A stretch of DNA of 64,000 nt from a virus. Under the pieces are notes generated by a model, which saw only the letters and a list, made by a program, of their open reading frames with translations, was not told the origin of the DNA and made no database searches. A program made the translations under genes and the position numbers. Shown piece after piece: positions 16,953 to 58,669 of the stretch. Within the stretch, counting starts at the first letter, position 1, and every line of letters begins with the position of its first letter. The stretch lies in IMG/VR virus record IMGVR_UViG_3300029985_000042, positions 3,513 through 67,512 of that record; one strand, 5' to 3'.

Positions 16953-17249
16953 TCAACAACTTACACTCATTCTCAAAGAAAAGAATAACTTTGCATCATT
17001 TATACTTTGAGTATCATTTCGTTCTTTTCCGAATTTTGGAGTTTTTGGCTTAAAATTTCTATTAAAATAATATCCATAAAATATTTTTATTCCTTTAATA
17101 TTGTATAACTTTAAATTTCTATTATTATATTTTAAATTTACTATATTACTAGTATAAAATCCGGCATCATCGAAAAAATCAAAATATAACATGTTGGAAC
17201 TACCAACATATCTTATACCTTCGTCTAATAATTTCTTGAGACTAATCAT
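16953..17249 (-). CDS. Hypothetical protein with MISLKKLLDE leader, probably 3'-truncated
   Basis: ORF track; late motif on the minus strand at 17257-17264. Confidence 0.5.
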   Translation of the reverse strand: MISLKKLLDEGIRYVGSSNMLYFDFFDDAGFYTSNIVNLKYNNRNLKLYNIKGIKIFYGYYFNRNFKPKTPKFGKERNDTQSINDAKLFFSLRMSVSC

Positions 17250-17346
17250 GATGTATATAAATATAATAATATTATTTATTCCCCACCTATAAATAATTAT
17301 TTAGTGATATTTTATGATTTTTCACTAAAGTTATCAATACTTATAT

Positions 17347-17517
17347 ATGATGGACAATAAAGAATATCAATCGGAATATAGAAAAACCAAAGAAAAGAAT
17401 GGTTGGAAATATTTTTCTATACTTGTGCCGGAGGATTGTTACTATCATCTAAAAAAATCATACCTTCTATGGAAAGCGGAAAATCTTAAAGATTGGAAGA
17501 AAATAAAAAATAAATAA
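17347..17517 (+). CDS. Unannotated 56-aa basic protein, possibly RHH-like DNA binder
   Basis: Translated by hand: MMDNKEYQSEYRKTKEKNGWKYFSILVPEDCYYHLKKSYLLWKAENLKDWKKIKNK; ATACTTAT at 17337; stop 2 nt before the next ATG. Confidence 0.55.
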   Translation: MMDNKEYQSEYRKTKEKNGWKYFSILVPEDCYYHLKKSYLLWKAENLKDWKKIKNK

Positions 17518-17519
17518 TT

Positions 17520-18185
17520 ATGGCTATAAAATTAAATAAAAATCATTCGAATCTAGATACTATAAAATTATGGATGTCGGGACAAAAGACCGATATTAGA
17601 GTATCCAACCATATTACAGAAAAAGAGAAGTATAGGCAAGACGGAGAAGAATTTGAATTGCAAGGTATCAAGTATAAAAAAGAAAATGGAAAAATTATTA
17701 AACTTACCAAATCTCAAGGTGATGTAATACGGGAATGTTTAAAGCGAATTTGTAAATGTGGACAGAATATTGCATGGGGAAGTAAAAAAGACGAATATTT
17801 TTACAACCGAACCGGACTATGTGAAAATTGTTTAATCAATTATGAAACCAATCTAAGAATTGTGGGGGCGTATGATGTCTATGAAAAATATAAATTATCA
17901 TCATATGCACTGGGAGACTTAAAAGATAAAAAAGAAAAGGTAAAAGATTTAATTAAATTTTTCATAGAAAATCCAAAAACTGCGGGCGATGTTACTTTGC
18001 CATGCGAAAATGGTATAGGAAATGATGCCGTGTGGGTCAATACTAATCGAGACCTAATTCTTGAAGATGCTAAAGTGGATTTGAAAAAAATTAAGAAATT
18101 AATAACCCAAGCATCAAAAATGAAACAAGAAAGTAAAAAGTTATATGTAGAGAAGTGTAAAGAATTTAAATTGAATGTAATATGA
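17520..18185 (+). CDS. Hypothetical protein (Zn-binding, coiled coil) upstream of terminase
   Basis: CKC...GLCENC; ORF track. Confidence 0.6.
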   Translation: MAIKLNKNHSNLDTIKLWMSGQKTDIRVSNHITEKEKYRQDGEEFELQGIKYKKENGKIIKLTKSQGDVIRECLKRICKCGQNIAWGSKKDEYFYNRTGLCENCLINYETNLRIVGAYDVYEKYKLSSYALGDLKDKKEKVKDLIKFFIENPKTAGDVTLPCENGIGNDAVWVNTNRDLILEDAKVDLKKIKKLITQASKMKQESKKLYVEKCKEFKLNVI

Positions 18186-19144: not shown

Positions 19145-19147
19145 TAT

Positions 19148-20782
19148 ATGATACCAGAACCTAAAAAACAATTGACCCAGAAGGAACTTTTAATATCAGA
19201 ATACAAGAAATGTGCCGCATCTCCCATATATTTCATGAAGAAGTATATTAAAATTCAACATCAATTAAAAGGGACGATAAATTTTAACTTATTCCCATTT
19301 CAGGAAGATACTTTACAACAATTAGCGGATAATAAATTTAATATTATTTTAAAATCAAGACAGATGGGGATTTCAACGTTGGTGGCGGCATATGCATTAT
19401 GGATAATGATATTTAATAGTGATAAAAATATTCTTATCATTTCAATCAAAGAGGCAACATCTAAAGAATTAATATCTAAAGTAAGATTTGCTAATGACCA
19501 CTTGCCATCATGGTTGAAAATACAATGTGAAGAAGACAATAAACTATCTTTAAAATTCAAAAATGGGTCAAACATCCGAGCCGTATCATCAAGTGGCGAT
19601 GCTGGACGTTCTATGGCAGTATATTTATTGATAATAGATGAGGCGGGATTTATCGATGGAATTTCTGATATTTGGGCATCTTCATGGAGCACGTTGTCAA
19701 CGGGTGGTAATGCGGTATTATTATCGACTCCAAATGGAATTGGTAATTGGTTTCATAAAATGTGGGTTGACGCCGAAAATAAGACCAATAGTTTTAATTC
19801 AATCCGATTAAAGTGGGACTTGCATCCGGAAAGAACTCAAACATGGAGAGACGCTCAAACTAAAGAATTGGGAGCAGCATTAGCCGGACAGGAGTGTGAC
19901 ACGGATTTCTTGGCTTCTGGAAATAATGTGATTAATTTAGAAACTATTGATTTTTATAAAGAAACATATAAGACAGAACCAGTTGAGTGTCGTGAATTGG
20001 ATAGAGCACTTTGGATTTGGCAATATCCAGACTATAATAATACATATATAATATCAGCAGATACAAGCCGTGGGGACGGTGGAGATTATCAGGCATGTCA
20101 TGTCTTAGATGCTGTTACATTGGAACAATGTGCTGAATATAAGGGTCAAATATCAACTAAAGAATATGGAAATTTGTTATGTTCGTTGGGAAATTATTAC
20201 AATAACGCATTATTGGTAATTGAACGAGAAAATACAGGCTGGGCAGTTATTCAACAAGTAATAGATAGAGATTATCCGAACTTGTTTTATATGACGAAGG
20301 ATTTAAAATACGTAGACCCCGAAACTCAAGTATCCAATAATTTTTATTCGGAGGAAAAAAAGGCAACTCCCGGATTTTCAACTACCATGAAAACTCGTCC
20401 AATTATTATTGATAATTTTATCAAATATATGAATGAACGAGAATTAAAGATACGGTCTAGTAGAACGTTGGCTGAAATGGAAACGTTTATTTGGAAAAAT
20501 TTTAAGCCACAAGCCATGCAAGGGTATAATGACGATTTAATTATAAGTTTATGTATTGGACTTTGGATACGTGATACCGCACTCAAATTAAGACAACAAG
20601 GAATTGATTTAACAAAAGCGTCATTATCACATATAAATAAAACCAAGCTGGATACTACTCCCGTATTTAAAGCACAAGCAAGAAATACTGCCCAACAGTC
20701 GTGGGAAATGTCAACTGGAAAATTGCCAAATCGACCGTTAGACGGAACTAATATGGAATCATTGCGGTGGCTCTTAGGTTAA
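19148..20782 (+). CDS. terL: Terminase large subunit (T4 gp17-like)
   Basis: FPFQ; KSRQMGIST Walker A; LLIIDEAGF Walker B; STPNG; ISADTSRG and NDDL nuclease motifs. Confidence 0.95.
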   Translation: MIPEPKKQLTQKELLISEYKKCAASPIYFMKKYIKIQHQLKGTINFNLFPFQEDTLQQLADNKFNIILKSRQMGISTLVAAYALWIMIFNSDKNILIISIKEATSKELISKVRFANDHLPSWLKIQCEEDNKLSLKFKNGSNIRAVSSSGDAGRSMAVYLLIIDEAGFIDGISDIWASSWSTLSTGGNAVLLSTPNGIGNWFHKMWVDAENKTNSFNSIRLKWDLHPERTQTWRDAQTKELGAALAGQECDTDFLASGNNVINLETIDFYKETYKTEPVECRELDRALWIWQYPDYNNTYIISADTSRGDGGDYQACHVLDAVTLEQCAEYKGQISTKEYGNLLCSLGNYYNNALLVIERENTGWAVIQQVIDRDYPNLFYMTKDLKYVDPETQVSNNFYSEEKKATPGFSTTMKTRPIIIDNFIKYMNERELKIRSSRTLAEMETFIWKNFKPQAMQGYNDDLIISLCIGLWIRDTALKLRQQGIDLTKASLSHINKTKLDTTPVFKAQARNTAQQSWEMSTGKLPNRPLDGTNMESLRWLLG

Positions 20783-20826
20783 AAGAAATAGCAATTAATC
20801 AACAAAAACAATATATTTATTATAAT

Positions 20827-23800
20827 ATGGCATTAAATACAAACCAACAGATGAGCGATGATATTCTTGATATTAAGAAACAGTCATTATATGCAAGATT
20901 AAAGACGTTATTTTCATCAGATACGATTGTTCGTAATGTCGGTGGGAAAAAGTTATTAGTTAAGGATACCGACCATTCTCAAATGGCAACGGATAGGAAT
21001 TCTTTACGAGATAGATTTAATAGAATTCGTTCCACGGCATATAATGCATATACCCGTGACTTTACATTATCATATCAAGCGGCAAGAATGGATTTGTTTC
21101 GTGATTATGATTGTGTAGGTCCCGATACTATAATTCCATTACCTGATGGGTCTAAACCAACAATTAAAGAATTAACGGAAAAATATAAAGATAAGCCCCA
21201 AGAGAGATTTAACGTATTCTCGTATGACCACGTTTCTAAATCAATAAAGATTGGGAAAGCATTTCATCCTAGATTAAAGGGTCCTCGTGAGGGGTGGAAG
21301 GTTACATTTGACAATGGACAGTTTGTTATTGGTAGTGAACGTCATCCATTTATGATGAGAAATGGAGAATATAAGTTAGTCAAGGAATTAAAAGTTGGAG
21401 AATCGGTCATGCCATTCTATCAATTTGAATATGGATATAAAAATCATGGATTTAAACGATATCGCCGACTATATAACTTCAGTAAAGGGTGGCAATCGGA
21501 GCATAAGATTGTGGCTGAACAGTTTAATAGAAAATTAGAAAAAAATGAAGTTGTTCATCATAAAAATTTTAATGGAGCCGACAATTCTCCTGAAAATTTA
21601 GAAATAATGGACTGGAAAGAACATAAAGCGTTTCATTCTAAGCATAACAAAGAAGTATTGTGGGGCAGCGAGAATTACGATATCCAACTTAAAAAATTAA
21701 AGGAAAATCCAAATTATATAAATCGAAAGATTCATCATTGGAACGGGGAAAGATTGGGAGAAAACAACCCATTTTATGGTAAAATACATTCTAATGAGTC
21801 AAATATTCTTAGGTCAAATTCCTTAAAAGAAGCATATAAAGATAGAGACCAAACAGTTGATAAAAATCCAAATTTTAGAACTGATTTAACAATTGACGTA
21901 TTAAAAATTAAAGCTACCGAATATTATAAAGAGAACGGAGAACTTTATATTTGGAAATTAGTTGACAGTATTGGATGTGATTATTCAACTATTCAATCTA
22001 GATTAAAATATAATAACTATACACGGAACACTTTTAAAGAAGAAATTACATCAACGTTAAATCATAAAATAGTATCGATAGAATCTGTGGGGATGATTGA
22101 CGTATATGATGTTACAGTCGACAAATATCACAATTTTGCAACTGATAGTTGCTTCGTGAGTAATACGATGGATATGGACCCAATCCTATCAAGTGCGCTT
22201 GATATTTACGCCGATGAAACGGTGACTATGAATGAAATGGGTAAGATTGTAACTGTTCATTGCGAAAACAATAATATAAAAGAAATATTAACCAACTTAT
22301 ATGAAGAAATATTACACGTTGATTTTAATTTGTGGTCATGGACTAGAAACATGTGCAAATATGGAGATTTCTATCTAAAGATTTATACCAATCCAGAATA
22401 TGGGGTATACATGGTTGAGCCAATATCGGCATATAACGTTGAACGAATTGAAAATTCAGACCCATATAATAAGAAGTATGTGAAGTTCCAAATTCGACCA
22501 ACTGATACATCCCAAGCCGAAGTCCTCGAAAGATATCAGATGTCGCATTTTAGGTTGTTGAGTGACAGTAATTTTTTGCCGTATGGTAAGGGAGTAATTG
22601 AGGGTGCTAGACGAGTATGGAAACAATTGTCGCTATTGGAAGACGCTATGTTAATCCATCGTGTCGTCCGTGCTCCAGAGCGTCGTATTTTTTATACCGA
22701 CATCGGAAATATCCCACCGGCTGAAGTTGATAATTACATGCAGAAGCTGATGGATAAGATGAAAAAGGTTCCATACATGGACGAACGCACGGGTGAATAT
22801 AACTTAAGATATAATCTTCAAAACATGCTAGATGATTATTATATCCCAGTTCGTGGTGGCGACTCCGGAACTAAAATTGATACTTTGTCGGGAATGGAGT
22901 GGACGGGAATTGACGACGTTGACTATGTCAAGAATAAAATGTTTGCGGCACTCAAAATTCCAAAGGCATTTTTGAGTTTTGACGAGGCTGCCGGCGGGAA
23001 GGCAACATTAAGTCAGGAAGATTTGAGGTTTGCTAGAACTATTCAACGAATTCAGAAGATAATCGCAAGCGAGCTTGAAAACGTTGGTATTATACATTTA
23101 TATGCTCAGGGATATCGAGACGAAAGTTTAATAGATTTTAAACTTGAACTAACTAATTCAAGCACTATATTCGAGAAAGAAAAAATTGAGATATGGGCGG
23201 ATAAAACTGATTTGGCATCTAACATGATGGATAACAAAGTATTTCCCCGTGAATGGATATACAAAAATGTGTTCAAAATGTCTGATGATGATACTGAAAA
23301 AGTAATGAAGGGATTAGTTGAAGATTCCAAGCAGAAATATAGGCTGGAGTCTATCGAAACTGAAGGAGATGACCCAGCGAAGCCGTTTAAGAAAATTGGT
23401 GGTGCTGGTGGTGCTGGTGGTGAACATGGCGATAAGGGAGGTCATGGAGGCGGTGGCGGTGGTGGCTTGGGAGACTTAGGAGGTCTTGGCGGAGATACCG
23501 AAGCGGAACCGGATGGGGAGGAGACGCCAGAAGGTGAAGTTAATAAGAAGGGGATACCAGAGGAACCTGTCGATGGTAAACCAGAGGATATAGTAAAAGA
23601 AGAAAGAGACCAATCAGGAGAACACGACGCCGGAGACCATCCATTTGGCGAGGACCCGCTCGGACACAATGAATTGAGTAGGAAGCCTAGAAATAATAGT
23701 GAAGGCAAGCGAAAGAGTGTATTGTATCATAATTTTGAGAATGACTCTCCATTTTCACTTGAAGAAATAAAAGGTCAATTGAAGCCTGATTTATCCAATA

Positions 23801-23934
23801 AAAAAAATAAGAATGACCTCATTACCATGCTAGGAGAATTCTTCGTTGATAATAAGATAAATACAGCGGAAAATTTAATAGTCGAAAACACCACAACCTC
23901 ATCATTAATGGATGAAAAAAACATAAAAGAGTAA
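20827..23934 (+). CDS. gp20: Portal protein (T4 gp20-like) with intein and Gly/Glu-rich C-terminal extension
   Basis: DPILSSALDIYADE; LLEDAMLIHRVVRAPERRIFY; DDYYIPVRGG; ALKIPK. ATG 20827 follows the late motif at 20813. Confidence 0.93.
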   Translation: MALNTNQQMSDDILDIKKQSLYARLKTLFSSDTIVRNVGGKKLLVKDTDHSQMATDRNSLRDRFNRIRSTAYNAYTRDFTLSYQAARMDLFRDYDCVGPDTIIPLPDGSKPTIKELTEKYKDKPQERFNVFSYDHVSKSIKIGKAFHPRLKGPREGWKVTFDNGQFVIGSERHPFMMRNGEYKLVKELKVGESVMPFYQFEYGYKNHGFKRYRRLYNFSKGWQSEHKIVAEQFNRKLEKNEVVHHKNFNGADNSPENLEIMDWKEHKAFHSKHNKEVLWGSENYDIQLKKLKENPNYINRKIHHWNGERLGENNPFYGKIHSNESNILRSNSLKEAYKDRDQTVDKNPNFRTDLTIDVLKIKATEYYKENGELYIWKLVDSIGCDYSTIQSRLKYNNYTRNTFKEEITSTLNHKIVSIESVGMIDVYDVTVDKYHNFATDSCFVSNTMDMDPILSSALDIYADETVTMNEMGKIVTVHCENNNIKEILTNLYEEILHVDFNLWSWTRNMCKYGDFYLKIYTNPEYGVYMVEPISAYNVERIENSDPYNKKYVKFQIRPTDTSQAEVLERYQMSHFRLLSDSNFLPYGKGVIEGARRVWKQLSLLEDAMLIHRVVRAPERRIFYTDIGNIPPAEVDNYMQKLMDKMKKVPYMDERTGEYNLRYNLQNMLDDYYIPVRGGDSGTKIDTLSGMEWTGIDDVDYVKNKMFAALKIPKAFLSFDEAAGGKATLSQEDLRFARTIQRIQKIIASELENVGIIHLYAQGYRDESLIDFKLELTNSSTIFEKEKIEIWADKTDLASNMMDNKVFPREWIYKNVFKMSDDDTEKVMKGLVEDSKQKYRLESIETEGDDPAKPFKKIGGAGGAGGEHGDKGGHGGGGGGGLGDLGGLGGDTEAEPDGEETPEGEVNKKGIPEEPVDGKPEDIVKEERDQSGEHDAGDHPFGEDPLGHNELSRKPRNNSEGKRKSVLYHNFENDSPFSLEEIKGQLKPDLSNKKNKNDLITMLGEFFVDNKINTAENLIVENTTTSSLMDEKNIKE
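21112..22164 (+). mobile_element. Intein (351 aa) with HNH endonuclease and NUMOD3 in the portal gene
   Basis: Starts C-VGPDT; block B GSERHPF; HHKNFNGADNSPENL (HNH); GENNPFYGKIHS; VYDVTVDKYHNF...FVSN/T C-terminal junction. Confidence 0.9.
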
Positions 23935-23989
23935 TAATATATTATATTTTACTTACAAACTACTATATTTATATTTAATCATTGATATC

Positions 23990-24901
23990 ATGAACAAAAT
24001 TACCAATACTCAGAAGAGAATGCGCCACTCTAAATTTAAAAATACCGGTATTTTATTTGAGTTATTAACTAAACAAGTGACGGCAGACATCATTGCCGGT
24101 AAAAATTCATCGAAAGCATCCGTCATTCTCCATAAATTCTTCAATAAAGACACCGAAATGGGTAAAGAATGGCAATTATATAATAAGCTGTTAAATGAAA
24201 AGATTAAAACCGAACAATCCGCTGATAGATACTACTCGACAATTTTGGATATTCGCAAAAAATTAAACAACAATTCTTTGGCGGTGGAAAAATACGAATT
24301 AATTAAAGAAATTAAAAACGCATATCCCCTAGACCAGATGTTAAAAACACCGGTTAAGAATTATCGGATGTTGGCCTCTATATATAAGTTATTTGAGAAT
24401 ACTACTTCTTCAGATTTAAAATTTGAAATTGACGAAATTTATCAGGCAAAGACCGTCATCGTCGAACATCTAACGGACAAACCAAACCTCATAAAAGAGG
24501 ATGACCAATCCCTAACATATTATAAATCACAGACCGAAGACATTAGATTATTGACATATAAGTTATTGGCCGAAAAGTTAAACGAAAAATATGCCAGTGT
24601 ATTGGATGATGAGCAGAAAGTAATTTTAAAAGAATATATCTGCAACGTATCAAACACCAATAAATTCGATGTATTTGTGCGAGACCACATATCAAAAATT
24701 AAAACTAAATTGACAGAGGCGATTAATAATATTTCAAGTTCGGACGTGATTAAGATTAAGATTAAAGAGGTTGTTAACCAACTTGACAAAATTAATCCGG
24801 ATAAGGTAGTGAAGGACAATCATGTTACCGTATTGATGTTATCCTATGAATTATTGAAAGAAATAAATTCTCATTCTGAAAATAAAACGCTCATAAAATG
24901 A
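23990..24901 (+). CDS. Head-module hypothetical protein (helical)
   Basis: HSKFKNTGILFELL N-terminus; lies between portal and protease; late motif at 23965. Confidence 0.6.
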   Translation: MNKITNTQKRMRHSKFKNTGILFELLTKQVTADIIAGKNSSKASVILHKFFNKDTEMGKEWQLYNKLLNEKIKTEQSADRYYSTILDIRKKLNNNSLAVEKYELIKEIKNAYPLDQMLKTPVKNYRMLASIYKLFENTTSSDLKFEIDEIYQAKTVIVEHLTDKPNLIKEDDQSLTYYKSQTEDIRLLTYKLLAEKLNEKYASVLDDEQKVILKEYICNVSNTNKFDVFVRDHISKIKTKLTEAINNISSSDVIKIKIKEVVNQLDKINPDKVVKDNHVTVLMLSYELLKEINSHSENKTLIK

Positions 24902-25656
24902 ATTCAACTATAAAGAAATCTCAATTAGAAGAATTAGTTACTGCTATAACTAAAACTTTATTGCACGAAATTCGTGAAGGTAAAGAGGAGAGTTGGAGCG
25001 ATATGATGCAAAGAGTAGAAACTGACTATAACCGAAATATAAAAGACCCAGCATATACAAATTATAAAAGAACCGACCCACGGGACTCAACTGACCAAGA
25101 TGGCAATAAATTAGCGGTTCCTGTCGACGAGGAATCTACCGCATCAGCAGTCGCTCCGGTTAATGGTAAGTTGCCAATTAACAGACGAGTAATGGAAAAT
25201 GACAATCTCGTAATGCGGGGAACATTCGTCGACAGGGGGCAAGTAAAATTGGAAGGTGGAATCGGCCAGCAAGTAGCCGATAAAATTGCCAATTACCATT
25301 GGGATATTATGCAGTCGATGGGTAAAGATGACCGAGGAATATTTAATTATAAGACTCGTGGAGATAGATGGTGTTGCTCCGTAGGTTTACTAAAAGGAGA
25401 ACCTGCAATTTTAAGTATAACTACAACTCCCGGGAGATTAAACTTATTAATTGGAAATAAAGAAATATTTGGGAATAATACATTGGAAGAAATGTCTGAC
25501 TCTAGTGGTGCGGGGTCATATAACATTCCATCTGCATTTTCAAGGCGAGATGGTGGTAGTTCAAAGGCACTTGCCGGTTCAGAGGCACTCGGATACGAAT
25601 TAACTCCTCAAGGGCATAAAGATTTTGAAAGACATCCTGACGCCATGTTGGAATGA
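24898..25656 (+). CDS. Putative head-internal protein
   Basis: IKKSQLEELV...LLHE leader; internal VDEEST and LEEMSDSSGAGSY segments. Confidence 0.5.
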   Translation: MNSTIKKSQLEELVTAITKTLLHEIREGKEESWSDMMQRVETDYNRNIKDPAYTNYKRTDPRDSTDQDGNKLAVPVDEESTASAVAPVNGKLPINRRVMENDNLVMRGTFVDRGQVKLEGGIGQQVADKIANYHWDIMQSMGKDDRGIFNYKTRGDRWCCSVGLLKGEPAILSITTTPGRLNLLIGNKEIFGNNTLEEMSDSSGAGSYNIPSAFSRRDGGSSKALAGSEALGYELTPQGHKDFERHPDAMLE

Positions 25657-25657
25657 T

Positions 25658-26824
25658 ATGGATTATAAATCACACATTAAAGAATTTCATGATATAGACG
25701 ACTCTCCATATGGGAAGCAAGAAGAAATTTATTTGCCTGATGGTAGAGAATTTATTGTTGATAGATGGGATATGGTTGGGAATGATATACAATATCACAA
25801 TGTATATAATCTAAATGATTTTCAAGATGAGAATGGAAATAGAAAACTTAATCCAGTTCCAATCCAAGTAGACCAAGAGTTAGATGCTAAAATTATTGAT
25901 TATATATCTAAAACTCATAGATTAGCCATTGGAGACGATGACGAATTTGACCCTAACTATGCATCTAAGAGTTCAGTCGCTCCATTTGCTACTCGTCCAC
26001 CCCGTGGGAATTTGAACGAAATTAAACATATAAATCTTAAAAGATTAATTGAACAATTTGGGAATGAAGGACAATATTATAATTTGAACCAAGATTTTTC
26101 GGGATTTAACAATTCCATGGAAAGTTCAATCGAACAATTAAAACAAAAATTTCAAACGACCATTGGTGAGAAGTTGAATGGTAAACGAGTAATGGCAAAA
26201 GCATCTCGTGGATATAAGCAATATGTCAAGGACTATGAATTTGATGTTAATAAGGTTACAATCGATGACTATTATGATAATTATGTGGTGGTTGCCCATG
26301 ATATGCATACCGCCAAGCCGAAAGAGTATTTCTTAGACCCAAAATCTCAGATACGAATTATAGGACCGGCGACGGGACAACCATCTCCACAAAAAGGGGT
26401 AAATCCGGCACAGGTTGCGGGTAAAGAACAACCTCATCAACAACCAATCACACACCCTCCAGTCGCTACTGCTCCAATAAAGGAAGCCGGTAAAGATGAG
26501 GATAAACAGTATGCCGCATACCCAATTGACTCTATAGTTGAGGATATTGCCACGTGGGTTCCTTCATTGTTAAAAAAACCCAAGACTCAATTATTAGACT
26601 TTGTAAAGAAAATCGGATGGACTGACACCAAGGAGTCGGGCGTTATAGTCTCCGTATTTGAGATACATATTCCAACTTCGGATTTAAAGTATAAGCTCGA
26701 ACAACAATCACTTGAGAATTTTATACTTAATAGGGCAAAATCCTCATTAAAAATAATAGACTTAGAATTGGACAAGGCAAAGGGAGAGTATATTATTAAA
26801 ATAAAGAAGATATACCGAAAATAA
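25658..26824 (+). CDS. Putative head-internal modular protein
   Basis: ATG 25658 (MDYKSHIKE) follows the upstream stop; internal LNE-IKHINLKRLIE and IKE junctions. Confidence 0.5.
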   Translation: MDYKSHIKEFHDIDDSPYGKQEEIYLPDGREFIVDRWDMVGNDIQYHNVYNLNDFQDENGNRKLNPVPIQVDQELDAKIIDYISKTHRLAIGDDDEFDPNYASKSSVAPFATRPPRGNLNEIKHINLKRLIEQFGNEGQYYNLNQDFSGFNNSMESSIEQLKQKFQTTIGEKLNGKRVMAKASRGYKQYVKDYEFDVNKVTIDDYYDNYVVVAHDMHTAKPKEYFLDPKSQIRIIGPATGQPSPQKGVNPAQVAGKEQPHQQPITHPPVATAPIKEAGKDEDKQYAAYPIDSIVEDIATWVPSLLKKPKTQLLDFVKKIGWTDTKESGVIVSVFEIHIPTSDLKYKLEQQSLENFILNRAKSSLKIIDLELDKAKGEYIIKIKKIYRK

Positions 26825-26839
26825 GATATATTTATTAAT

Positions 26840-29236: not shown

Positions 29237-29252
29237 TATTTATATTTATATT

Positions 29253-30923: not shown

Positions 30924-30935
30924 AATAAGTTTACT

Positions 30936-31187: not shown

Positions 31188-31229
31188 TAAAATAAGTTTA
31201 CTTCTTCGATAGATAGTTTATAATTCAAC

Positions 31230-36244: not shown

Positions 36245-36268
36245 TATATTTTAATTATATTTATATAT

Positions 36269-40907: not shown

Positions 40908-40953
40908 CTCTTGACTTATTATAAATCTCTGATATCCTACTGAAAAATAAATT

Positions 40954-45281: not shown

Positions 45282-45361
45282 TCATTTATAAAATTAACTT
45301 CTCAATAATAATTATTTTCACATTTATGTGATTTTGGCATTTCTCACTTATATTTATAAGT

Positions 45362-47031: not shown

Positions 47032-47043
47032 AATATATAAATA

Positions 47044-47760: not shown

Positions 47761-47785
47761 ATGAGTATAAATATAATCCAAAACC

Positions 47786-49824: not shown

Positions 49825-51516
49825 ATGAACGATGTAAAACAATTATTGACCAGTGCGCTTAATCCGCAAGCTCGTCTTTTGCAAGAAACCCGTGGTCTCG
49901 TGACCAAGTGGGACAAGACTGGATTACTTGAAGGTCTCAAGAGCCAAGTCGAAAAATCAAATATGTCTGTATTGCTTGAAAACCAAGCTAAACAGCTTAT
50001 CGAAGAATCTTCCTCAACTGGAACTTCTGGAAACTCCGAACAATGGGCTGGTGTAGCTTTGCCGTTGGTTCGCCGTGTGTTCGCAGAAATCGCAGCCAAG
50101 GAATTCGTATCTGTTCAGCCAATGAACCTCCCATCAGGGCTTGTGTTCTATTTGGACTTCAAATATGGTTCTAACAGCGGCGTGTTCACCAAAGACTCTG
50201 GCACAAACTATGAGTCATTGTTCGGTGGAACTGGTATCAAGTCTGGTTCAACAGACGCTCCGGTTAATGGTCTATATGGACCTGGTAGATATGCATACAC
50301 TATCAACGACCAGACAATCTCCTTAACTGGTGGTTCTGTCGCAAGTGCTTCTATCGCCGATATTAACTTTGACACTGGTAATGCAAATGACCCAGTTAAT
50401 CAGTCTATCTCTTCATCCTTGGCTGCTGGTGCGTTGTATACCTATACGACTACTAACTTCTCAGCCAACTCATTGACCGCATCAGGTTCCGCTCCTGATT
50501 TAAACGCCGTCCGTTCATTCACTATCAGTGGTTCTGGTATCGTCACTTATTACCCTGGGTTTACCCGTGTTAATGGTCCTGAAGCAGTGTTCGTGGTCAG
50601 CGGCTCAAGTGTTGCTACGACTGTTACGATTAACTACTCTGTCCAACCTCAACCGACGTCACGTGGCGACTTCGAAGATAAGGGTATTAAATCAACCTCA
50701 ACCGACACTGGACTTAACCAAGATATCGGTATTCCTGAAATCAACCTCCAGTTGAACAGCGAACCTATCGTTGCTAAGACCCGTAAGTTGAAAGCCGTTT
50801 GGACTCCTGAATTGGCTCAAGACTTGAACGCTTATCACAGCGTCGATGCAGAAGCAGAATTGACTGCGTTGCTCTCGGAATATGTGTCCATGGAAATCGA
50901 CCTCGAAATCCTCGACATGTTAATCACTAATGCTCCGAACATCAACAAAGAACGTTGGAGTGCTAAAATCAACCGTGATATCATCAAGACTGGTGCGAAT
51001 AGCTACAGCATTGTTGATAACTCAACGACTGCTAACGCTGGTGCTGGTTTCGGTTACTACACCAAGGCTTCGTGGTATCAGACTCTTGGTAACAAGATTC
51101 AGAAAATCTCGAACAGTATTCATCAGTTGACCCTCCGTGGTGGTGCTAACTTCATGGTCGTAGGACCGGCAGTCGCAACTATCTTGGAATCAATTCCTGG
51201 ATTCGTGGTTAACACTGATGGTGACTCCGCTAAGTTCGCAATGGGTGTCTCCAAGGTTGGTAACTTCGCAAGTCGTTTCCAAGTGTATAAGAACCCTTAT
51301 ATGCAGGAAAACTTAATCCTCATGGGTTTCCGTGGAAATAACTTCCTCGAAACCGGCGCAGTATACTCACCGTATATTCCGCTCATCCAAACTCCTTTGG
51401 TGTATGACCCGATTAACTTTACGCCAAGACGTGGTGTTATGACTCGCTACGCCAAAAAAATGGTTAGACCGGAATTTTATGGCCTAATCTACGTGTCTGA
51501 CACTAACTTAGTCTAA
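49825..51516 (+). CDS. gp23: Major capsid protein (T4 gp23-like)
   Basis: LLENQ; LPLVRRVF; VSVQPMNLPSGLVFYLDF; AKTRKLKAVWTPELAQDL; EIDLEIL; YSPYIPL; TRYAKK; strongly biased codon usage. Confidence 0.96.
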   Translation: MNDVKQLLTSALNPQARLLQETRGLVTKWDKTGLLEGLKSQVEKSNMSVLLENQAKQLIEESSSTGTSGNSEQWAGVALPLVRRVFAEIAAKEFVSVQPMNLPSGLVFYLDFKYGSNSGVFTKDSGTNYESLFGGTGIKSGSTDAPVNGLYGPGRYAYTINDQTISLTGGSVASASIADINFDTGNANDPVNQSISSSLAAGALYTYTTTNFSANSLTASGSAPDLNAVRSFTISGSGIVTYYPGFTRVNGPEAVFVVSGSSVATTVTINYSVQPQPTSRGDFEDKGIKSTSTDTGLNQDIGIPEINLQLNSEPIVAKTRKLKAVWTPELAQDLNAYHSVDAEAELTALLSEYVSMEIDLEILDMLITNAPNINKERWSAKINRDIIKTGANSYSIVDNSTTANAGAGFGYYTKASWYQTLGNKIQKISNSIHQLTLRGGANFMVVGPAVATILESIPGFVVNTDGDSAKFAMGVSKVGNFASRFQVYKNPYMQENLILMGFRGNNFLETGAVYSPYIPLIQTPLVYDPINFTPRRGVMTRYAKKMVRPEFYGLIYVSDTNLV

Positions 51517-51659: not shown

Positions 51660-53687
51660 ATGAATGATAAAAAAAGAATAGTAATAAATAAACCCCTTAC
51701 TAAAACATGTGATATATGCCACAATGATTTCTCATTATATTCATTTTCGAGTCATATAAAACATTTACATAAATTAACGTCGGATGAGTATGCTACTAAA
51801 TATGGAGAATTTCGGCAACCTAAACGAGAAAAATCAAACCGAATAATAAATAAAATAACATGTCAACTATGTAATGTAGAATTCTCCTCGGTTGGGATGT
51901 TCACACATCTCAGAGATACTCATAATACAACTCCTGATGATTATACGACACAATTTGGAGAATACCGTCCGTCCAAGATACGACAAAAAGAATATGTTGG
52001 TAGACTCGAAACAACGAACAAAGAAGACCATCAAATTTGTTTAATATGCAATCAGCCATTTCCATCCGGAAATTTACTTGGATATCATGTAAAAAATATT
52101 CATAATATTAATAAAAAGGATTATATAATGGATTATGTATTTAAAGGTGTTCGGACTTTATGTGGATGCGGATGTCAACGAAAAGTCAAGTTATTAACAT
52201 ATCATCCATATAAGGTAGATTTTATATCGGGGCATAATTCTGTTGGAGAAGGCAATGCAATGTTTGGGAAACATTTTTCAATAGAAACAAAAAAGAAAAT
52301 GTCGTTGAAGGCAATTGATAGAATTAACACCCAAACATTTGTAAAAACTGATACTAAGCCAGAATTGGAATTTAAATCTATATTAGATAAATTACAAATC
52401 AATTATATCCACCCATATACTGTCGATTTGGGTAAACGTCATGCGTCGATTGATTTTTATCTTCCCGATTATAATATGCTAATTGAAGTTGATGGTGAGT
52501 ATTGGCATCCTAAAGATTTTAGTAAATTAAATTTTCATACAATTTCCAATATTATATCAGATGGCGAACGTAAAGGATTGAAAAATCTATATAGAATTAG
52601 AGAATTTGACATGGCTAAATTTATGGAGTGTGCCGCAACTAAAGAATTGGCAATTGAGTATATTAAAACAAATAATATCATATTTAATCCGGAATTAAGA
52701 TATAAGAAACCGATTATAAATAAAACATACTTTCAAGAATGCCTCTTGAAAAAGGGGAAGGAATATGTAAAATCATTTAACTGGATACTTCGAAAATTCA
52801 TTCGAACATTCCAACCTGAATTACCTTACCCTGATTTGGAAGAAAATTTGCCTGATATATTATCTAAACTATCAAAGATGGATACGTCTAAGCCATATAA
52901 TCCAGAGACAAAAGAATTTTCCAATAATATAAGTGTAGTGGGACATAATTATTTAAAGCATTATTTTCATTCATATTGGGGAAGTAAATTTAATGGTAAT
53001 CCCTCGCCAAAGGAGGCTTGGTTAGATGATAAAATAATGCAGGAAGTTATTGATTATCGAATTGGATGTAATACGAGTGGGGAGGTATATGATTTTAGTT
53101 TACATCAATGTGTGAGAGGATTGAGTGCTCGAAGAATAAGTGTATCTTTTTTTAAACCGGCGTTGGCGGCTTCTATTTATAAAACTTATTTGGGAGATAT
53201 AACTAATCCAGTGGTATTAGACCCATGTTGTGGATTTGGGGGTAGATTGTTAGGATTTAAGAGCCAATATCCAGATGGAAAATATATTGGATGTGAACCT
53301 AATGTTGAAACATATAATGAATTACAAACACTAATTAAAAATGGTAATTGGGAGGATAGTGTTGAAATATATAATTGTAAATTTGAAGATTTTGTATTTA
53401 ATAACAATTATAAATTTGATATGATATTTACAAGTATTCCGTATTATGATGTTGAAATATATTCTAATAATACCGAATACAAATCGTTTGAAGAATGGAG
53501 AAATACATTTATAAACTCGATTGAAAATTGTAAATTATATTCTTCCAATGTATATATTAATTTGCCGGTTGAATTATGTAATTCGTTAGGATGGTCTGAT
53601 AAGGTAGAATCATATATTATATCAAATAGAAGTCATTTTGATAATAAAGAAGGTAAGAAAATGGAGCCGATTGTTAAGTTGTCTTAA
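51660..53687 (+). CDS. Fusion: Zn fingers + NUMOD3 + Vsr-like endonuclease + DNA methyltransferase
   Basis: Three C2H2 fingers; CGCGC; NAMFGKHFS; IDF...LIEVDGEYWH; FFKP..A; LDPCCGFGGRL; FTSIPYY. Confidence 0.8.
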   Translation: MNDKKRIVINKPLTKTCDICHNDFSLYSFSSHIKHLHKLTSDEYATKYGEFRQPKREKSNRIINKITCQLCNVEFSSVGMFTHLRDTHNTTPDDYTTQFGEYRPSKIRQKEYVGRLETTNKEDHQICLICNQPFPSGNLLGYHVKNIHNINKKDYIMDYVFKGVRTLCGCGCQRKVKLLTYHPYKVDFISGHNSVGEGNAMFGKHFSIETKKKMSLKAIDRINTQTFVKTDTKPELEFKSILDKLQINYIHPYTVDLGKRHASIDFYLPDYNMLIEVDGEYWHPKDFSKLNFHTISNIISDGERKGLKNLYRIREFDMAKFMECAATKELAIEYIKTNNIIFNPELRYKKPIINKTYFQECLLKKGKEYVKSFNWILRKFIRTFQPELPYPDLEENLPDILSKLSKMDTSKPYNPETKEFSNNISVVGHNYLKHYFHSYWGSKFNGNPSPKEAWLDDKIMQEVIDYRIGCNTSGEVYDFSLHQCVRGLSARRISVSFFKPALAASIYKTYLGDITNPVVLDPCCGFGGRLLGFKSQYPDGKYIGCEPNVETYNELQTLIKNGNWEDSVEIYNCKFEDFVFNNNYKFDMIFTSIPYYDVEIYSNNTEYKSFEEWRNTFINSIENCKLYSSNVYINLPVELCNSLGWSDKVESYIISNRSHFDNKEGKKMEPIVKLS

Positions 53688-53699
53688 TATTTATATAAT

Positions 53700-54244
53700 A
53701 TGATATTACTTAAATCTCTGTTATCCGAGCGGTTTTATACTGATACTGGAGGTTGGTATCATGGTTCGGCCTCTGGAGATTTGAGGGTGGGTCTACTGGA
53801 TTACACCTTGGCACATTTTTAGCGGCAAAGCAAGCGTTAGATGCAAGTATTGGTGCTCCAGTGGAGGGTGAATGGGATGGAACTAGAGAATATGGTAAAA
53901 CTTTATTATGTGGTAAAAAAAGTTTAAAGAAAAAAGGAATATCCGAAACTGGATTTAATTGTGAAATTCCGGATGAAGATTTTTATCCAAACAATAAACC
54001 AGAATTAAGATGGTTAAAATATTTAAAATATGATATGAAACCAGCTATTAAAAAATATAAAATATTATGTCCAATGACTAATATGACTTCAAATCCATAT
54101 CACGACTGGAAAGCTAATGGATATATGCGTGGACTATTAAAACGAGGAGTTGCTAAACGAGGATTTTATTATAAAAACGAATCGGAAGATTATGGTAGTA
54201 TATCGGTGGTAGTTCCTAATGGAGATTGTGTAAAAGAAATATAA
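53700..54244 (+). pseudogene. ADP-ribosyltransferase-like protein with MILLKSLLSE leader, split by a -1 frameshift at about 53786
   Basis: Frame 1: MILLKSLLSERFYTDTGGWYHGSASGDLR. Frame -1: GGSTGLHLGT..AA...GFYYKNESEDYGSISVVVP. Confidence 0.6.
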
Positions 54245-54293
54245 ATTGTAGAGATTAAATCTATTTATCATTTAGTAAATAATATTTATATAT

Positions 54294-55165
54294 ATGATAG
54301 ATAATAAATTCATATATTTAATATTAATTTTACTACTACTTCTATCCCCAGAAACATATTCCCAGTCAAATACCAATTCAAATATAACTGAAATTCAGAT
54401 TCAACAATCAGTTAATTCAATGAAAAATGGAGGGACTATTACGTTACCCAATGAAGTAATACGAATAAATACTCCTTTATTAGTAACAAATAGTAACGTA
54501 AGAATTGTTGGTGATACTAATACCATCCTTAAATTGGATGATAATTCTAATTGTCCAATTATAGTGATAGGGATTCAAGGAGGTGATGTCATAACAAACA
54601 GTGAACTTATATCTTTACAATTGGATGGGAACCGAACAAACCAATGTCGGGAAATTTGGAAATTGTCAGATATAGGATATCCGATTTATAATAATGGGAT
54701 AGTAATACAAAATGCAAGAGATATTTTTTTATATGATATAATAACATCTAATTGTAGGTCGGGAGGATTAGTATCAACATTAAATGTTAATAAGTTGGTA
54801 GTTGTAAATTATGTATCTTTTAATAATCAATTTGATGGGATTTCGTGTTATCAAACTAGTAATAGTTATTTTATAAATCTATATCTTCATGATAATATTG
54901 CCGCTGGTATTTCTGTAGATATGGGATTTAATTATAATATATTTAAAAATATAATAATATTGGAATAGTCATTCGAAATAGTTCTAATAACGTATTTAAG
55001 GATGTAACACTGGAACAAAATTTAAAATTTGATATATTTTTGGCATCGGTTGACAATCGACCATTTACTGGATGTAATAATAATATATTCAACATAAAAC
55101 ACGATGGAATCATATTTAAAGACGTTATTTTATGCACAAATAACCTTTTTTATATTAAACTTTGA
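54294..55165 (+). pseudogene. Secreted right-handed beta-helix protein, frameshifted near 54950
   Basis: Signal peptide; GGTITLP; LDGNRTNQ; NN.FDG repeats; after TAG 54968 the -1 frame continues NNIGIVIRNSSNNVF... to TGA 55165. Confidence 0.6.
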
Positions 55166-55176
55166 TATTTATTCAT

Positions 55177-55980
55177 ATGATTAAACTCCGAGATTTGTTG
55201 TGTGAACGAATGTCTTTTAGAGACATTCTAAGGGCGTCTGATTCCGCACGGTTAAATCGTTCAAAAACAGTATCTAACAAATCGTTGGGAGTTAGGTCTA
55301 ATGACGAATTAGAAACTTGGAACTTTTCGTATAAAACTACAGGGGGAAAATCAACTACGGGTAGGCGTCACCGTGGGTATATAAAATTTAATAAAGAAAA
55401 CGTTGATTCCACAGATAATCCCGCCGATTTAGAAATTATATGTGACTGCAACTGTCCGGACATGACGTATAATCTTGCATATAGAAATAATCAAAAACAA
55501 ATTACCCCGATAGGTTCTACCGCAATTAACGGTTCTAATGGACAGAAACCTACTCCGGAACATGACCATTTCGGATTATGTAAACATTTAGGTTCGTTGG
55601 CTAGATATCTCAATGAAACTACGATACAAGCACCTCAAGAACCGGAGCCAGCTAATGTTCCAACTTCTCAAGTGAAACAGTCGCCTGAAAAAATACCAAT
55701 AATTAACCCTACGTCTGACGCACCAACGCCGGAGGACTCTCATTCGATAGAGCCGACCCCCGTTCCACCGTCAAACAGGAAAATTCCTCCTCAAAAAAAT
55801 AAACCAATTAAACCACCGGAAAAAGAAGTTCCTCGACAAAAAGCACCGGTAAAAATCGGTGATACTTATTCGGATGAAAATGAAATAACGGAAAATAACA
55901 ATATTAAAAAATCATTGCGGCAAAAAATCGAAGAGTTTATAAAGAAAACTCCAATGTTTAACGTTCCTTATCCTGATTAA
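55177..55980 (+). CDS. SWIM-type Zn finger protein with MIKLRDLLCE leader and Pro-rich tail
   Basis: CDCNCPD...GLCKHL; late motif at 55165. Confidence 0.7.
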   Translation: MIKLRDLLCERMSFRDILRASDSARLNRSKTVSNKSLGVRSNDELETWNFSYKTTGGKSTTGRRHRGYIKFNKENVDSTDNPADLEIICDCNCPDMTYNLAYRNNQKQITPIGSTAINGSNGQKPTPEHDHFGLCKHLGSLARYLNETTIQAPQEPEPANVPTSQVKQSPEKIPIINPTSDAPTPEDSHSIEPTPVPPSNRKIPPQKNKPIKPPEKEVPRQKAPVKIGDTYSDENEITENNNIKKSLRQKIEEFIKKTPMFNVPYPD

Positions 55981-57112
55981 TTATTTTATTTCCCTTATCA
56001 ATATTTCCAATTGAGGTTGAGCCATGGTCTCTTGCTATCTTGGTGGTAGCCCATCGTGGATATAAATTAGTATAATGACATGCCTTTCGAAATTCTTCTA
56101 AATTAGTTAAATCAAATACGTCTAGAGGAATGTTGTGGTCGATATGCCATACTTTACCGTAATTTTCCATTGTCATTCCAAGTTCAAACTTACTTTTTAA
56201 ATATATTATAAAGTCATCAATCGAAATTCCCAAATCCTTAACCGCAGAGCCTAATTTAGAATTTCGTTTTAGAGCACAATATAATCTAGTTCGCAAATTA
56301 CATGCTATTTTAAATTTTGGACTTTTGGCTTTAAGTTCTCGTCTACTTCTATTCACTTTTTCACGATTGTTCTTATAATATAATGCCTGTTTTTCTCTGT
56401 TTTTATAATAATTTAATCTATTTTTTAATTGTCTTGCATCTTTATTATCAGTGTAATATTTTCTTTTCCTTTCTATTAATAGTTCTTTATTTTTTAATCT
56501 ATACAACTTTCCTTTTATTGCTACTATTTCTTTATTCTTAATATAATTTATCCTTCGGGTTTCTTTTAATATTTCTTTATTTTTTATAGCGTAGGATTTC
56601 TTATATTCGCTGGTTTTTAATTTATTTAATTTTCGTTGTTCTCGTATGAGTTCTTTATGTTCGGTATAATACACCCGACTATGTTCGGTTTGTTTCTCTT
56701 TATCTTTTATATATCTAAGTCTACTTTTTTCCTTGATTGATGATTTATTCTTTAAATTATAGTTCTTCAGATATTCCGTGCGTTTAATTGCTTTTTCTTC
56801 TTTTATCCTAAATAGTTCTTCATCTGATATGATTATTTTATTTTTAACTCTCCTTTCTCTTTTTGAATTACTACTGCATAATTTACATATGGTATGATAA
56901 CCGTCCTTTTTGGACTTATCTTTACAGAAGTCGTCTATATTTTTTTCGATGCCACATTTATTGCATTCTTTTCTTATTTTCCCAATATCGTCGCATATTT
57001 TCGATATTAATCCGTTCTTTATGTCGGTTGTAGTATCGTTTGGCTCTTGCTCGTTGGAGTTCAAGCAATTCTTCTCTGGTTCGGTTAAGTTTTGGTTGAG
57101 ATTTTCTTCCAT
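55958..57112 (-). CDS. HNH endonuclease with basic helical repeats
   Basis: CNKC...CKLC; NLRTRL; MTMENYG..WHIDHNIP...CHYTNL...N..KGNK. Confidence 0.8.
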   Translation of the reverse strand: MEENLNQNLTEPEKNCLNSNEQEPNDTTTDIKNGLISKICDDIGKIRKECNKCGIEKNIDDFCKDKSKKDGYHTICKLCSSNSKRERRVKNKIIISDEELFRIKEEKAIKRTEYLKNYNLKNKSSIKEKSRLRYIKDKEKQTEHSRVYYTEHKELIREQRKLNKLKTSEYKKSYAIKNKEILKETRRINYIKNKEIVAIKGKLYRLKNKELLIERKRKYYTDNKDARQLKNRLNYYKNREKQALYYKNNREKVNRSRRELKAKSPKFKIACNLRTRLYCALKRNSKLGSAVKDLGISIDDFIIYLKSKFELGMTMENYGKVWHIDHNIPLDVFDLTNLEEFRKACHYTNLYPRWATTKIARDHGSTSIGNIDKGNKIINQDKER

Positions 57113-57422
57113 AATTTCTTACTCCAAATATTATATTATAACAATTTTTTTTATCTTTTTTTGCATTGTTCAGATATTTCTGTTCAATGTCCGATAATTC
57201 TTCTGCTGTTTTATCTTCGAATTTTTCCAATACTTCATATTTAAACATTTTTTCACCATATTTGTTCCACGCATTCTGCATATGAGTATTATAATGTATA
57301 TTTCTTCTTAATTTACTCTTATGGTCACTCCATCTAGTATGTTTTAGTATATTTGAGTCGCTTCCAATATAATATTTATTTGATTTAATATTTGTTATTT
57401 TGTAAATGCCCTTTATATTCAT
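56958..57422 (-). CDS. GIY-YIG endonuclease
   Basis: GIYKITNIKSNKYYIGS...RWSDH...H.N..MQNAWNKYG...F.YEVLE...EQKYL...YN. Confidence 0.8.
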   Translation of the reverse strand: MNIKGIYKITNIKSNKYYIGSDSNILKHTRWSDHKSKLRRNIHYNTHMQNAWNKYGEKMFKYEVLEKFEDKTAEELSDIEQKYLNNAKKDKKNCYNIIFGVRNYGRKSQPKLNRTREELLELQRARAKRYYNRHKERINIENMRRYWENKKRMQ

Positions 57423-57508
57423 ATACTATACATATAAGCGAGTTTAAGAGAACGTCATATTATTTCAAATTATTTTTTGGTATATAAGAATGATGACGAT
57501 ATTTATAT

Positions 57509-58669
57509 ATGATGAACATTAAAAATATAATTGAAACCGTTGTTTCTCGAATAATCAACGAATCATTCCAAACAGGAGAATATTGGATTACTGATGATGG
57601 CTCTACTATCTATTGTGATATTGATGTTGGCGACCAAGGACATCAGGGAGTTATTATCGAGCATTGTGCCAGAGAAATTTTATCGCATTTTGGAATTGAT
57701 ATTGATGACTCTGGTTTATTAGGAGACCATGAAGAAAGTATTAAAGGAATTCTTATTTCCGATGGAAGATTATCCACCGAAGAAATCGAAGAGTGGGATA
57801 GAAAATCTCCATCTGAAATTATTTTAAGAAAATTAATAGAAGATAAAGTGTATCCTTCCGATAAACAAGCAAGTGAAGCATTGTATATTTCATATGGTGG
57901 AACTTCAAGTAGAGACCCCCGGGAATATGGCCTAGAATACTTACACTGGAAGATTTCTAAAACATTTAGCAATAGAATGGAAGTTCAGACATGGACATTA
58001 ACCGAAAAAGATTTATCCATTATAGTAAGAGGATTGAACGATATTTGGGAAGACAATTCTGAAGATGATGATATTCCAGAAGATGAAAGAGATTTGGTAA
58101 ATATAACGGTCTATAAAACCGGAAAAGTATATCATGACATTCCCCTCTCCGTATTGGAAAAAGGATTGGTATCAAGAGTTATAGGATTTAGAAAGGAACA
58201 ACCATGGATGGCGGAAAATATAAATGAAGATTATCATCACTCTCACTCTGACTATAGAATTTTAGAGGGCGACAAACTTATTACCGCAATATTCAATGAC
58301 AACTCCCGCCTACAATTTGAAATACATTTTCGTGATAAAAAGGGAAGAGAAAATAAAGAAAAACATCGGAAGCAAGCCGTCTCAAAATGGAAGTCCTTGG
58401 CGTCGAAAATCCACAATGAAAGTAAAGAATTAAATGAGGTCGGAAATCAACAAGAACTATCATGGAAAGAATGTTTTTCTCAAGCCTTGCAAGACCCAGA
58501 ATTACAAGAATTTATTCGAGATAATCATCATGAGCAAGTCTATCCCCAAGAGGATACCGGGTATGAACAAAAACAAATTTATCCATATATGGAGCCAGAC
58601 GCATATACTCCACAAGGCTCTTCACAGGTCGGTGGCCACATCGACAGCACTAATATACAGGGAGCATGA
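57509..58669 (+). CDS. Acidic modular putative head-internal protein
   Basis: MMNIKNIIETVVSRIINE leader; GEYWI....G...H motif; late motif at 57499. Confidence 0.55.
   Translation: MMNIKNIIETVVSRIINESFQTGEYWITDDGSTIYCDIDVGDQGHQGVIIEHCAREILSHFGIDIDDSGLLGDHEESIKGILISDGRLSTEEIEEWDRKSPSEIILRKLIEDKVYPSDKQASEALYISYGGTSSRDPREYGLEYLHWKISKTFSNRMEVQTWTLTEKDLSIIVRGLNDIWEDNSEDDDIPEDERDLVNITVYKTGKVYHDIPLSVLEKGLVSRVIGFRKEQPWMAENINEDYHHSHSDYRILEGDKLITAIFNDNSRLQFEIHFRDKKGRENKEKHRKQAVSKWKSLASKIHNESKELNEVGNQQELSWKECFSQALQDPELQEFIRDNHHEQVYPQEDTGYEQKQIYPYMEPDAYTPQGSSQVGGHIDSTNIQGA

Follow-up and report, generated by a model that had tools for sequence, protein, structure and literature searches.

The leader and the genes that carry it

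The window analysed here is the 64-kb stretch (positions 3,513 to 67,512) of the 67.5-kb virus record IMGVR_UViG_3300029985_000042, a fragment of a distant T4-like phage from peat and possibly of a jumbo phage. An earlier sequence-only reading of this DNA had proposed that a portable N-terminal leader recruits diverse proteins into the phage head. Leaders of two related classes were found at the starts of six strong members. The class A leader, M-I-x-L-[KR]-x-L-L-x-E, makes up residues 1–10 of four open reading frames (ORFs) starting at ATG, which are unrelated, putatively late genes (17249 and 47031 on the minus strand, 53700 and 55177 on the plus strand). The class B leader, a 17-residue relative ending in [IL]-x-E followed by Ser, is present in two plus-strand genes (29253 and 57509/57512). 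The coordinates 16953, 46163 and 46711 used below are the low ends of minus-strand ORFs, the starts of which are at 17249, 46681 and 47031, respectively.

The class A leader MISLKKLLDE belongs to a 98-aa orphan protein (16953–17249, minus strand), for which no homologue sharing words with it was found and in which the leader site is the sole [LI]xE site. A 106-aa protein (46711–47031, minus strand) has the class A-like start MILLKELL (MILLKELLNS..ATE), in which Leu4, Leu7 and Leu8 are present, position 10 is Ser, and L-K-E occupies residues 4–6; L-x-E at residues 4–6 is kept by its orthologues in the related contigs G001 and L011 (at residues 3–5 in L010). The three other class A leaders have Leu4, Leu7, Leu8 and Glu10. 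MILLKSLLSE precedes a protein of about 180 aa of a family here termed WYHGS (53700–54244, plus strand), with weak matches to the ADP-ribosyltransferase (ART) type of fold, and MIKLRDLLCE precedes a 267-aa protein with a C-x-C...C-x-H (SWIM-like) pattern (55177–55980, plus strand). The class B leaders are MNIKNIIETVVSRIINE at 57512 and MNLKSLIKQCVNEVILE at 29253, each followed by Ser, and the two align without gaps. The former starts a 386-aa protein of two domains (57509–58669, plus strand), domain A with GEYWI...DxGDxxHxG and domain B, and the latter a 556-aa protein with a Cys-rich C-terminal end (29253–30923, plus strand). Since the second ATG of the 57509 gene, at 57512, has better spacing to the upstream motif described below, it is likely the start.

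In an all-against-all BLASTP of 18 proteins, the leader proteins were alike only in residues 1–11, in agreement with the proposal that the leader sits on unrelated proteins. The codons at conserved class A residues vary (Leu4: CTC/CTA/CTT/CTC; Leu7: TTA/CTA/CTG/TTG; Glu10: GAA/GAG/GAA), showing that selection acts on the peptide and not on the DNA. The leaders are kept on five orthologues in G001; a search of that contig for 55177 was empty, and G001 ends at the capsid gene. In these six genes the leader is real, and three others are plausible carriers.

The loose core [LIVM][KR]x[LI][LIV], a pattern picked after the data were seen, occurs 36 times in the 21,644 residues of 73 ORFs, and 10 of these occurrences start in the first 13 residues, compared with 1.6 expected (binomial P 2e-6). 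To score the leader with foreign data, a 10-column matrix trained on 38 distinct leaders of foreign homologues was run on the 75,446 six-frame positions of the 67.5-kb record. It ranked exactly the four class A N-termini on top: 55177 (31.8), 53700 (25.7), 17249 (18.9) and 47031 (16.4), followed in fifth place by an 18-codon ORF (8.6). The scores of 55177 and 53700 are not independent, since they are orthologues of training sequences; 17249 and 47031 have no relative in the training set and their scores are independent. The same matrix gave 14 hits in 1.36 Mb of other phage loci versus none in the reversed DNA. The class A leader is far beyond chance.

A ATATTTAT[AT] motif was found 10–15 nt before the ATG of all six strong leader genes, at 17256–17264 (minus strand), 29236–29250 (plus), 47036–47044 (minus), 53687–53695 (plus, 13 nt before the ATG), 55165–55173 (plus) and 57499–57507 (plus). 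The motif is associated with 15 of 70 genes, being 10–15 nt before the ATG in 13 and 25–27 nt before it in two, and all six strong genes are among these 15 (P 4e-5). One copy precedes the protease gene (26828–26836, plus), and further copies are at 7477–7485, 36257–36265, 45350–45358 and 54282–54290. In relatives (G001 and the Flavobacterium phage immuto), it also precedes portal, baseplate-region and fibre-region genes. On the coding strand the motif is the reverse complement of T4's TATAAATA. We infer that it is a late promoter, in which case the messages would have almost no 5' leader. The leader was absent from all recognised enzymes of the window in translations, Pfam matches and the matrix scan (NAMPT, NUDIX, the IMPDH-family gene, the Metallophos+AAA_23 gene, RlaP and terminase), an outcome favouring the sequence-only reading, against which a leader equally common on early enzymes would have counted.

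Three more genes are plausible members, judged by their N-termini. A 252-aa protein encoded between portal and protease (24898–25656, plus strand) has a long leader, ..KKSQLEELVTAITKTLLHE, and its ..KKSQL.. start has counterparts both on cargo of other origin and on gp072 of immuto. A 388-aa protein encoded directly before the protease (25658–26824, plus strand) has the short leader MDYKSHIKE, and a 172-aa protein (46163–46681, minus strand) has ..LSLKQIVE at residues 9–16. These three N-termini are preserved in G001 and also in L010, and all three are similar to leaders found on cargo elsewhere. With 8 [LI]xE sites versus 2.2 expected, the 46163 protein is closer in appearance to a core or scaffold-type protein than to cargo. 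Inside the 25658 protein, residues 125–137 (26030–26068) form a stretch, INLKRLIEQFGNE, that is similar to the 29253 class B leader and that G001 preserves as LSLKKLMEQSE; a core protein might be docked or cut at such an internal site.

Other candidates were rejected. Two genes listed in the sequence-only reading, 30936–31187 and 31230–31853 (together 30936–31853, plus strand), owe their identical first 17 residues to a local partial duplication, in which some 40 nt of coding sequence and an upstream stretch are repeated (30905–31294). Because the shared start is duplicated DNA, no late-type motif is present and 31230 has a sigma-70-like site, which that reading had also seen, neither gene is counted; they fit neither leader class. 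The proposed family and its placement behind the late motif consequently lose these two genes and stand for the six strong ones, with the three plausible members added to the family. The gene 47786 was dropped because its leader-like start is not kept in L010. A GNAT-like cargo had been suggested at 27542, but the GNAT matches are under the cut-off (20.5 bits versus 27) and the N-terminus, MQIKEWILNN, is no leader; this gene encodes a homing endonuclease (PHROG 3339, E 6.7e-112) and is absent from G001, and the suggestion was abandoned. No relative of 31230 or 57509 was obtained in the IMG/VR scans.

Leaders and cargo in other phages

Homologues of the cargo proteins allowed the leader to be followed separately from the bodies to which it is attached. 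The WYHGS family comprises 80 hits of about 180 residues, with a conserved body beginning W-Y-H-G-S. A strict class A start was found in 28 of the 80. Other members begin with MIRFREFIAE, MKRFREFIKE, MKTFIQFISE or MKSFKSFIIE, and still others with MKHLKLFE, MKYLQLFE, MKDALGHGS.. or almost nothing before the body. These leader "dialects" grade from MIKLKxLLxE to MIRFREFIAE, and T4 itself has MKTYQEFIAE, the start of its IPII and IPIII proteins (record NC_000866); ten residues are too few to establish descent. Among the nine homologues of the SWIM-like protein 55177, four have strict class A leaders, as MIKL[RM]DLLxE, and two more apparently have the same leader with a later start called.

The 57509 family yielded 415 hits at E up to 0.001, and 11 of the best 150, listed as representatives, have strict class A leaders. 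In the 87 proteins with domain A near the N-terminus, three leaders are of class A, 49 are other leaders with hydrophobic-x-E and 16 are other leaders without it, while the remaining 19 have at most 12 residues upstream. Long class B-type leaders also occur in this family, e.g. MKIKKSQLQTLVQEIIRETVRVLNE, and proteins consisting of domain B only have leaders of class A (P0114, P0185) or class B (P0099, P0107). The 29253 leader (LIKQCVNEVILE) is found nearly unchanged on the unrelated 57509-family proteins P0126 and P0180. The presence of the same cargo families with the same leader, with other dialects or with none shows the leader to be a swappable module, as expected of the portable leader originally proposed, and this portability is the strongest line of evidence. 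In addition, proteins of other phages join the SWIM-like module of 55177 to 57509's domain A (P0093 and P0133), or domain B to NUDIX and thymidylate kinase behind a leader-like start (P0128 and P0164 among the fusion proteins listed).

Leaders also recur within single loci. In locus L011, a stretch of 20 kb contains four class A ORFs, of which two are related to 46711 and 53700, and in L002 a class A start is beside a class B-like start. When other ORFs were compared with the leader of their own locus, six shared at least 6 of 10 residues, versus 0.4 with permuted leaders; this test was usable in 35 of the 80 loci and its choice of start codons was crude. In phage immuto (L007, 100–150 kb), about 12 of 57 annotated proteins were seen by eye to have leader-like starts, MKKSQLxxIIxE.. 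or MENxFDLKKFLVENKL, many of them in replication or nucleotide-metabolism genes with no late-type motif close by.

Pfam and PHROGs gave no name to any of the six strong cargo proteins, and tblastn against cultured phages gave nothing for 57509, 29253 or a WYHGS homologue. For the WYHGS family no Pfam match was obtained at E up to 1, and profiles of the WYHGS and 57509 families found no solved structure by sequence. The AF2 model of the WYHGS homologue P0003 has a pLDDT of 93.7; in it the leader forms a helix of its own, at residues 4–12, that is predicted with lower confidence. Most of the 50 VIA-align rows listed for it are ART-superfamily proteins, all with Z < 6, including MbcT (Z 5.1, root-mean-square deviation 3.2, 93 aligned residues), diphtheria toxin (Z 5.0), RES, ParT and PARPs; the best Foldseek E-value is 0.18. 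In 77 sequences, His21-Gly22 is nearly invariant and Tyr161, Asn163 and Glu166 are invariant, which fits an H-Y-E reading. An ART-type fold is likely for this family, though not settled. The ART-like cargo of the sequence-only reading is thus retained as to its structural neighbours, with the reservations that the fold matches are weak (Z up to 5.1) and that the gene is frameshifted in the window.

This frameshift is a -1 break near 53786 that splits the 53700 gene into ORFs 53700–53822 and 53753–54244, the window appearing to be one G short within a G run. The same break, with 0 differences, is present in contigs from four other peat runs, so that it is not a one-off assembly error, and the gene is probably a pseudogene in this population. 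A programmed frameshift was considered and rejected, there being no slippery heptamer or long homopolymer, and intact homologues read ..GDLRGG.. through. For 55177, Pfam returned 0 families at E up to 0.01; its C-D-C...C-K-H pattern was seen by eye and matched no SWIM profile in Pfam, so the SWIM assignment made earlier was not supported. The model of 57509 (pLDDT 85.3) matched no fold clearly: the best Foldseek E-value is 0.17, the VIA rows are mixed with Z up to 5.9, PsiB being among those for domain B (Z 4.8), and the ESM Atlas gave no usable match.

Prohead protease, probable capsid cleavage site and proposed role of the leader

The candidate clipping enzyme is a prohead protease of the T4 gp21 family (26840–27460, plus strand). 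The gp21 homologue claimed at this position was confirmed by its match to Pfam PF03420 (Peptidase_S77), with E 2.1e-28 and 99.6 bits (cut-off 27), and its own N-terminus has L-M-E at residues 9–11. The T4 gp23-type major capsid protein (49825–51516, plus strand) has as best matches Microcystis phage Mel-JY01 and Flavobacterium phage immuto (53% identity each); phage records matching it number 2,569, mostly T4-like phages. In the capsid alignment, the site at which T4 gp23 is cleaved, L-T-E65 followed by A, corresponds to Q-L-I-E-E61 followed by S-S-S here and to I-V-S-E followed by A in immuto. The start of T4 gp24 is MAKINELLRE followed by S, and the class B leaders likewise end in E followed by S.

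The proposed docking partner is a putative scaffold (48533–49795, plus strand), so named for its position before the capsid gene, low-complexity middle and [LI]xE content; it had no Pfam or PHROG match. A 303-aa conserved protein encoded after the portal (23990–24901, plus strand) is a candidate core protein. The number of [LI]xE sites exceeds the shuffled expectation in the scaffold (15 versus 5.7), in the 23990 protein (13 versus 4.7) and in the protease (8 versus 2.7), whereas the cargo bodies are not enriched (the 53753 ORF has 1 versus 1.5 expected). With the caveat on helical proteins given below, this distribution is the T4 pattern of a shredded core and trimmed cargo. The 23990 and 46163 proteins, conserved, small, helical and as [LI]xE-rich as the scaffold, may be additional core proteins destined for fragmentation. 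When the putative scaffold was modelled in complex with a WYHGS homologue bearing a leader, the score was 0.20 (mark 0.32), which tells for neither side.

In T4, gp21 is described as cutting after Glu in L/I-X-E, and the 10-residue capsid targeting sequence (CTS) of IPIII as using positions 4 and 7 for targeting and 8 and 10 for processing (PMC9026906). According to PMC3012670, the CTS is all that T4's varied internal proteins have in common, and PMC9026906 suggests that it lets T4-like phages load varied proteins. The leaders of the present phage are similar in being N-terminal peptides of about 10 residues on otherwise unrelated proteins, and the likeness to the CTS put forward at the outset is upheld by an exact fit of the class A layout, hydrophobic at 4 and 7 with [LI]-x-E at 8–10. 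As in T4, a gp21-family protease is present, the tagged genes are scattered and not in one operon, and the leaders of some WYHGS homologues are nearly identical to T4's MKTYQEFIAE. The differences are that the residues are others (M-I-x-L-K-x-L-L-x-E), that a second, 17-residue class occurs in the same phage, that the cargo families are not those of T4, that the capsid protein is only distantly related to T4's, and that the leader is known here from sequence alone.

A further parallel is T4 Alt, an ADP-ribosyltransferase that is packaged and injected and whose short propeptides are removed at ITE-6 and LTE-619, as given in PMC5694885. The WYHGS cargo likewise combines a probable ART-type fold with a putatively cleavable N-terminal leader, and 46711 and its orthologues keep L-x-E at residues 4–6, like the ITE-6 site of Alt in that account (PMC5694885). 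The T4 alt.-1 duplicate starts MELITELFDG. Unlike Alt, which has 682 residues by its record coordinates, the WYHGS cargo has about 180 and is frameshifted here, and its fold match is weak (Z up to 5.1) and on the H-Y-E side (diphtheria toxin, PARP, RES, MbcT). For the giant phages phiKZ, 201phi2-1 and SPN3US, PMC5694885 and PMC9026906 describe ejection or inner-body propeptides cut at S/A-x-E, and also diverged giant-phage paralogues, gp53 and gp54, with identical 15-residue N-termini. Removal of an N-terminus after Glu by a gp21-related protease is what is proposed here as well; the giant phages differ in cutting at A/S-x-E and not L/I-x-E, in having a MEROPS S80 protease and in having propeptides that are often long. 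Literature searches, including ones beyond the T-even phages and on Mel-JY01, returned no report extending the CTS to such distant T4-like lineages.

Taken with the T4 precedent, these data make it probable that the leaders are capsid targeting sequences of the T4 type, serving both targeting and clipping; we are somewhat less confident that the cargo is injected into the host. During prohead construction, the short amphipathic N-terminal helix would dock its protein to the scaffolding core, and the 26840 protease, as suggested by T4 and by the capsid-protein alignment, would then cut after the Glu of [LI]-x-E. The trimmed cargo would stay in the head with the DNA and probably enter the host with it, by analogy with T4 IPI–III and Alt, and two or three head-core genes next to the protease appear to carry longer or shorter versions of the leader.

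Several observations weigh against this assignment. The specificity of the 26840 protease is taken from T4. In the 47031 leader Glu10 is missing, and the residue three places ahead of the later Glu14 is not hydrophobic. The motif is near the ATG of five to seven leaderless genes (7490, 36269, 45362, 48388 and 54294). A class A matrix match was found in just 8 of the 80 IMG/VR loci of the WYHGS family, since most loci carry other leaders. Enrichment of [LI]xE in helical, coiled-coil-like proteins may reflect heptad composition and not cut sites. From composition, [LI]xE is expected at about 0.9% of positions and in about 13% of any 15-residue stretch, so that its occurrence near an N-terminus is common by chance and the weaker members could be accidents. 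Finally, with its gene broken, the ART-fold cargo is probably not made whole here.

The most serious alternative, which we nevertheless regard as unlikely, is that what the leader brings into the prohead are assembly parts (core, scaffold-like or size-determining), lost at maturation by degradation or expulsion, and not effectors for injection. It is in keeping with this that 24898, 25658 and 23990 occupy the place taken in T4 by core genes 67 and 68, that the 46163 and 23990 proteins are as rich in [LI]xE as the scaffold, and that three related contigs retain the cluster 47786–46711–46163 next to the scaffold gene, as for core parts and not for swappable cargo. However, the class A and B bodies lack such enrichment (16953 has the leader site only), the cargo families are accessory, of many architectures and fused to enzymes elsewhere, and one cargo has a predicted ART-type fold, like T4's injected Alt by annotation. 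Less probable again is a shared N-terminus with no relation to the capsid, either another tag (for membrane or pole localisation, a chaperone or degradation) or a by-product of starts tuned for very short 5' leaders behind ATATTTATA. This motif ends within a few bases of the ATG, so a transcript may have next to no 5' leader and its initiation could depend on the first codons, and the link between leader and head is one of sequence and analogy; yet synonymous codons vary at conserved residues, quite different N-termini follow the same motif and spacing in 26840, 54294, 7490 and 45362, and the layout recurs with other residues in other lineages, including near-copies of T4's proven tag. For a secretion signal, the leader is too short and its end too acidic.

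Chance, AT-rich composition bias or descent of paralogues is very improbable as an explanation of the whole set and has been refuted where the six strong members are concerned. It is true that Lys, Ile, Leu and Asn are abundant, and 30936 and 31230 do share their start through plain duplication, but the four class A matrix scores of 16–32 stand apart from the next of 8.6, the reversed 1.36 Mb gave no match, and no similarity extends past residue 11.

Beyond the assignment as capsid targeting sequences, we tentatively raise a broader possibility, to which we give somewhat less than even weight: the leader may be a lineage-specific address code that co-evolves with scaffold and protease, with a common cargo pool moving between distant T4-like lineages by exchange of the 10–25-residue address. 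This pool would include the WYHGS family with its probable ART fold, the SWIM-like module, and domains A and B of 57509, which have no recognisable fold and at times occur fused together or to NUDIX–thymidylate kinase enzymes. Were this so, one could read from the genomes of uncultured T4-like and jumbo phages which proteins they inject, and 57509 and similar families would represent new effectors of host takeover or counter-defence. The trick itself is known from T4; here it would be found in a distant lineage. Should targeting and injection hold, a ten-residue tag would list, from sequence, the proteins carried into the host and first to meet its defences, large unnamed families (80, 10 and 415 database hits) would be flagged as candidates for such roles, and the T4 packaging trick, by which T4 heads have already been filled with foreign proteins, would extend to phages of other hosts.

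Neighbouring genes and source

The DNA is held by public runs from peat metagenomes; 15 public runs, none of them RNA, contain 53500–54400. The related IMG/VR contig G001 has 63 kb and is rated 18% complete, and homologues of one cargo gene were found on contigs up to 380 kb, suggesting that the phage may be large. Upstream of the plausible leader genes 24898 and 25658 are a T4-type large terminase (19148–20782) and, by Pfam, a T4-type portal with an intein (20767–23934). The intein has HNH and NUMOD3 parts, with Pfam Intein_splicing at residues 123–464.

Genes of the homing-endonuclease type are scattered in the head region, at 27542–29236, 47044–47796, 56958–57422, 7490–8527 and 51660–53687, and at 1519–2274 of L001; their kinds include PHROG 3339, two GIY-YIG, NUMOD3 and a Vsr/NUMOD3/methyltransferase fusion. 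The related contig that lacks 27542 has a different insert directly before its protease gene. NUDIX and NAMPT genes adjoin at 40470–42324, and the genome thereby combines salvage of nicotinamide adenine dinucleotide (NAD) with an ART-fold cargo that might use NAD.

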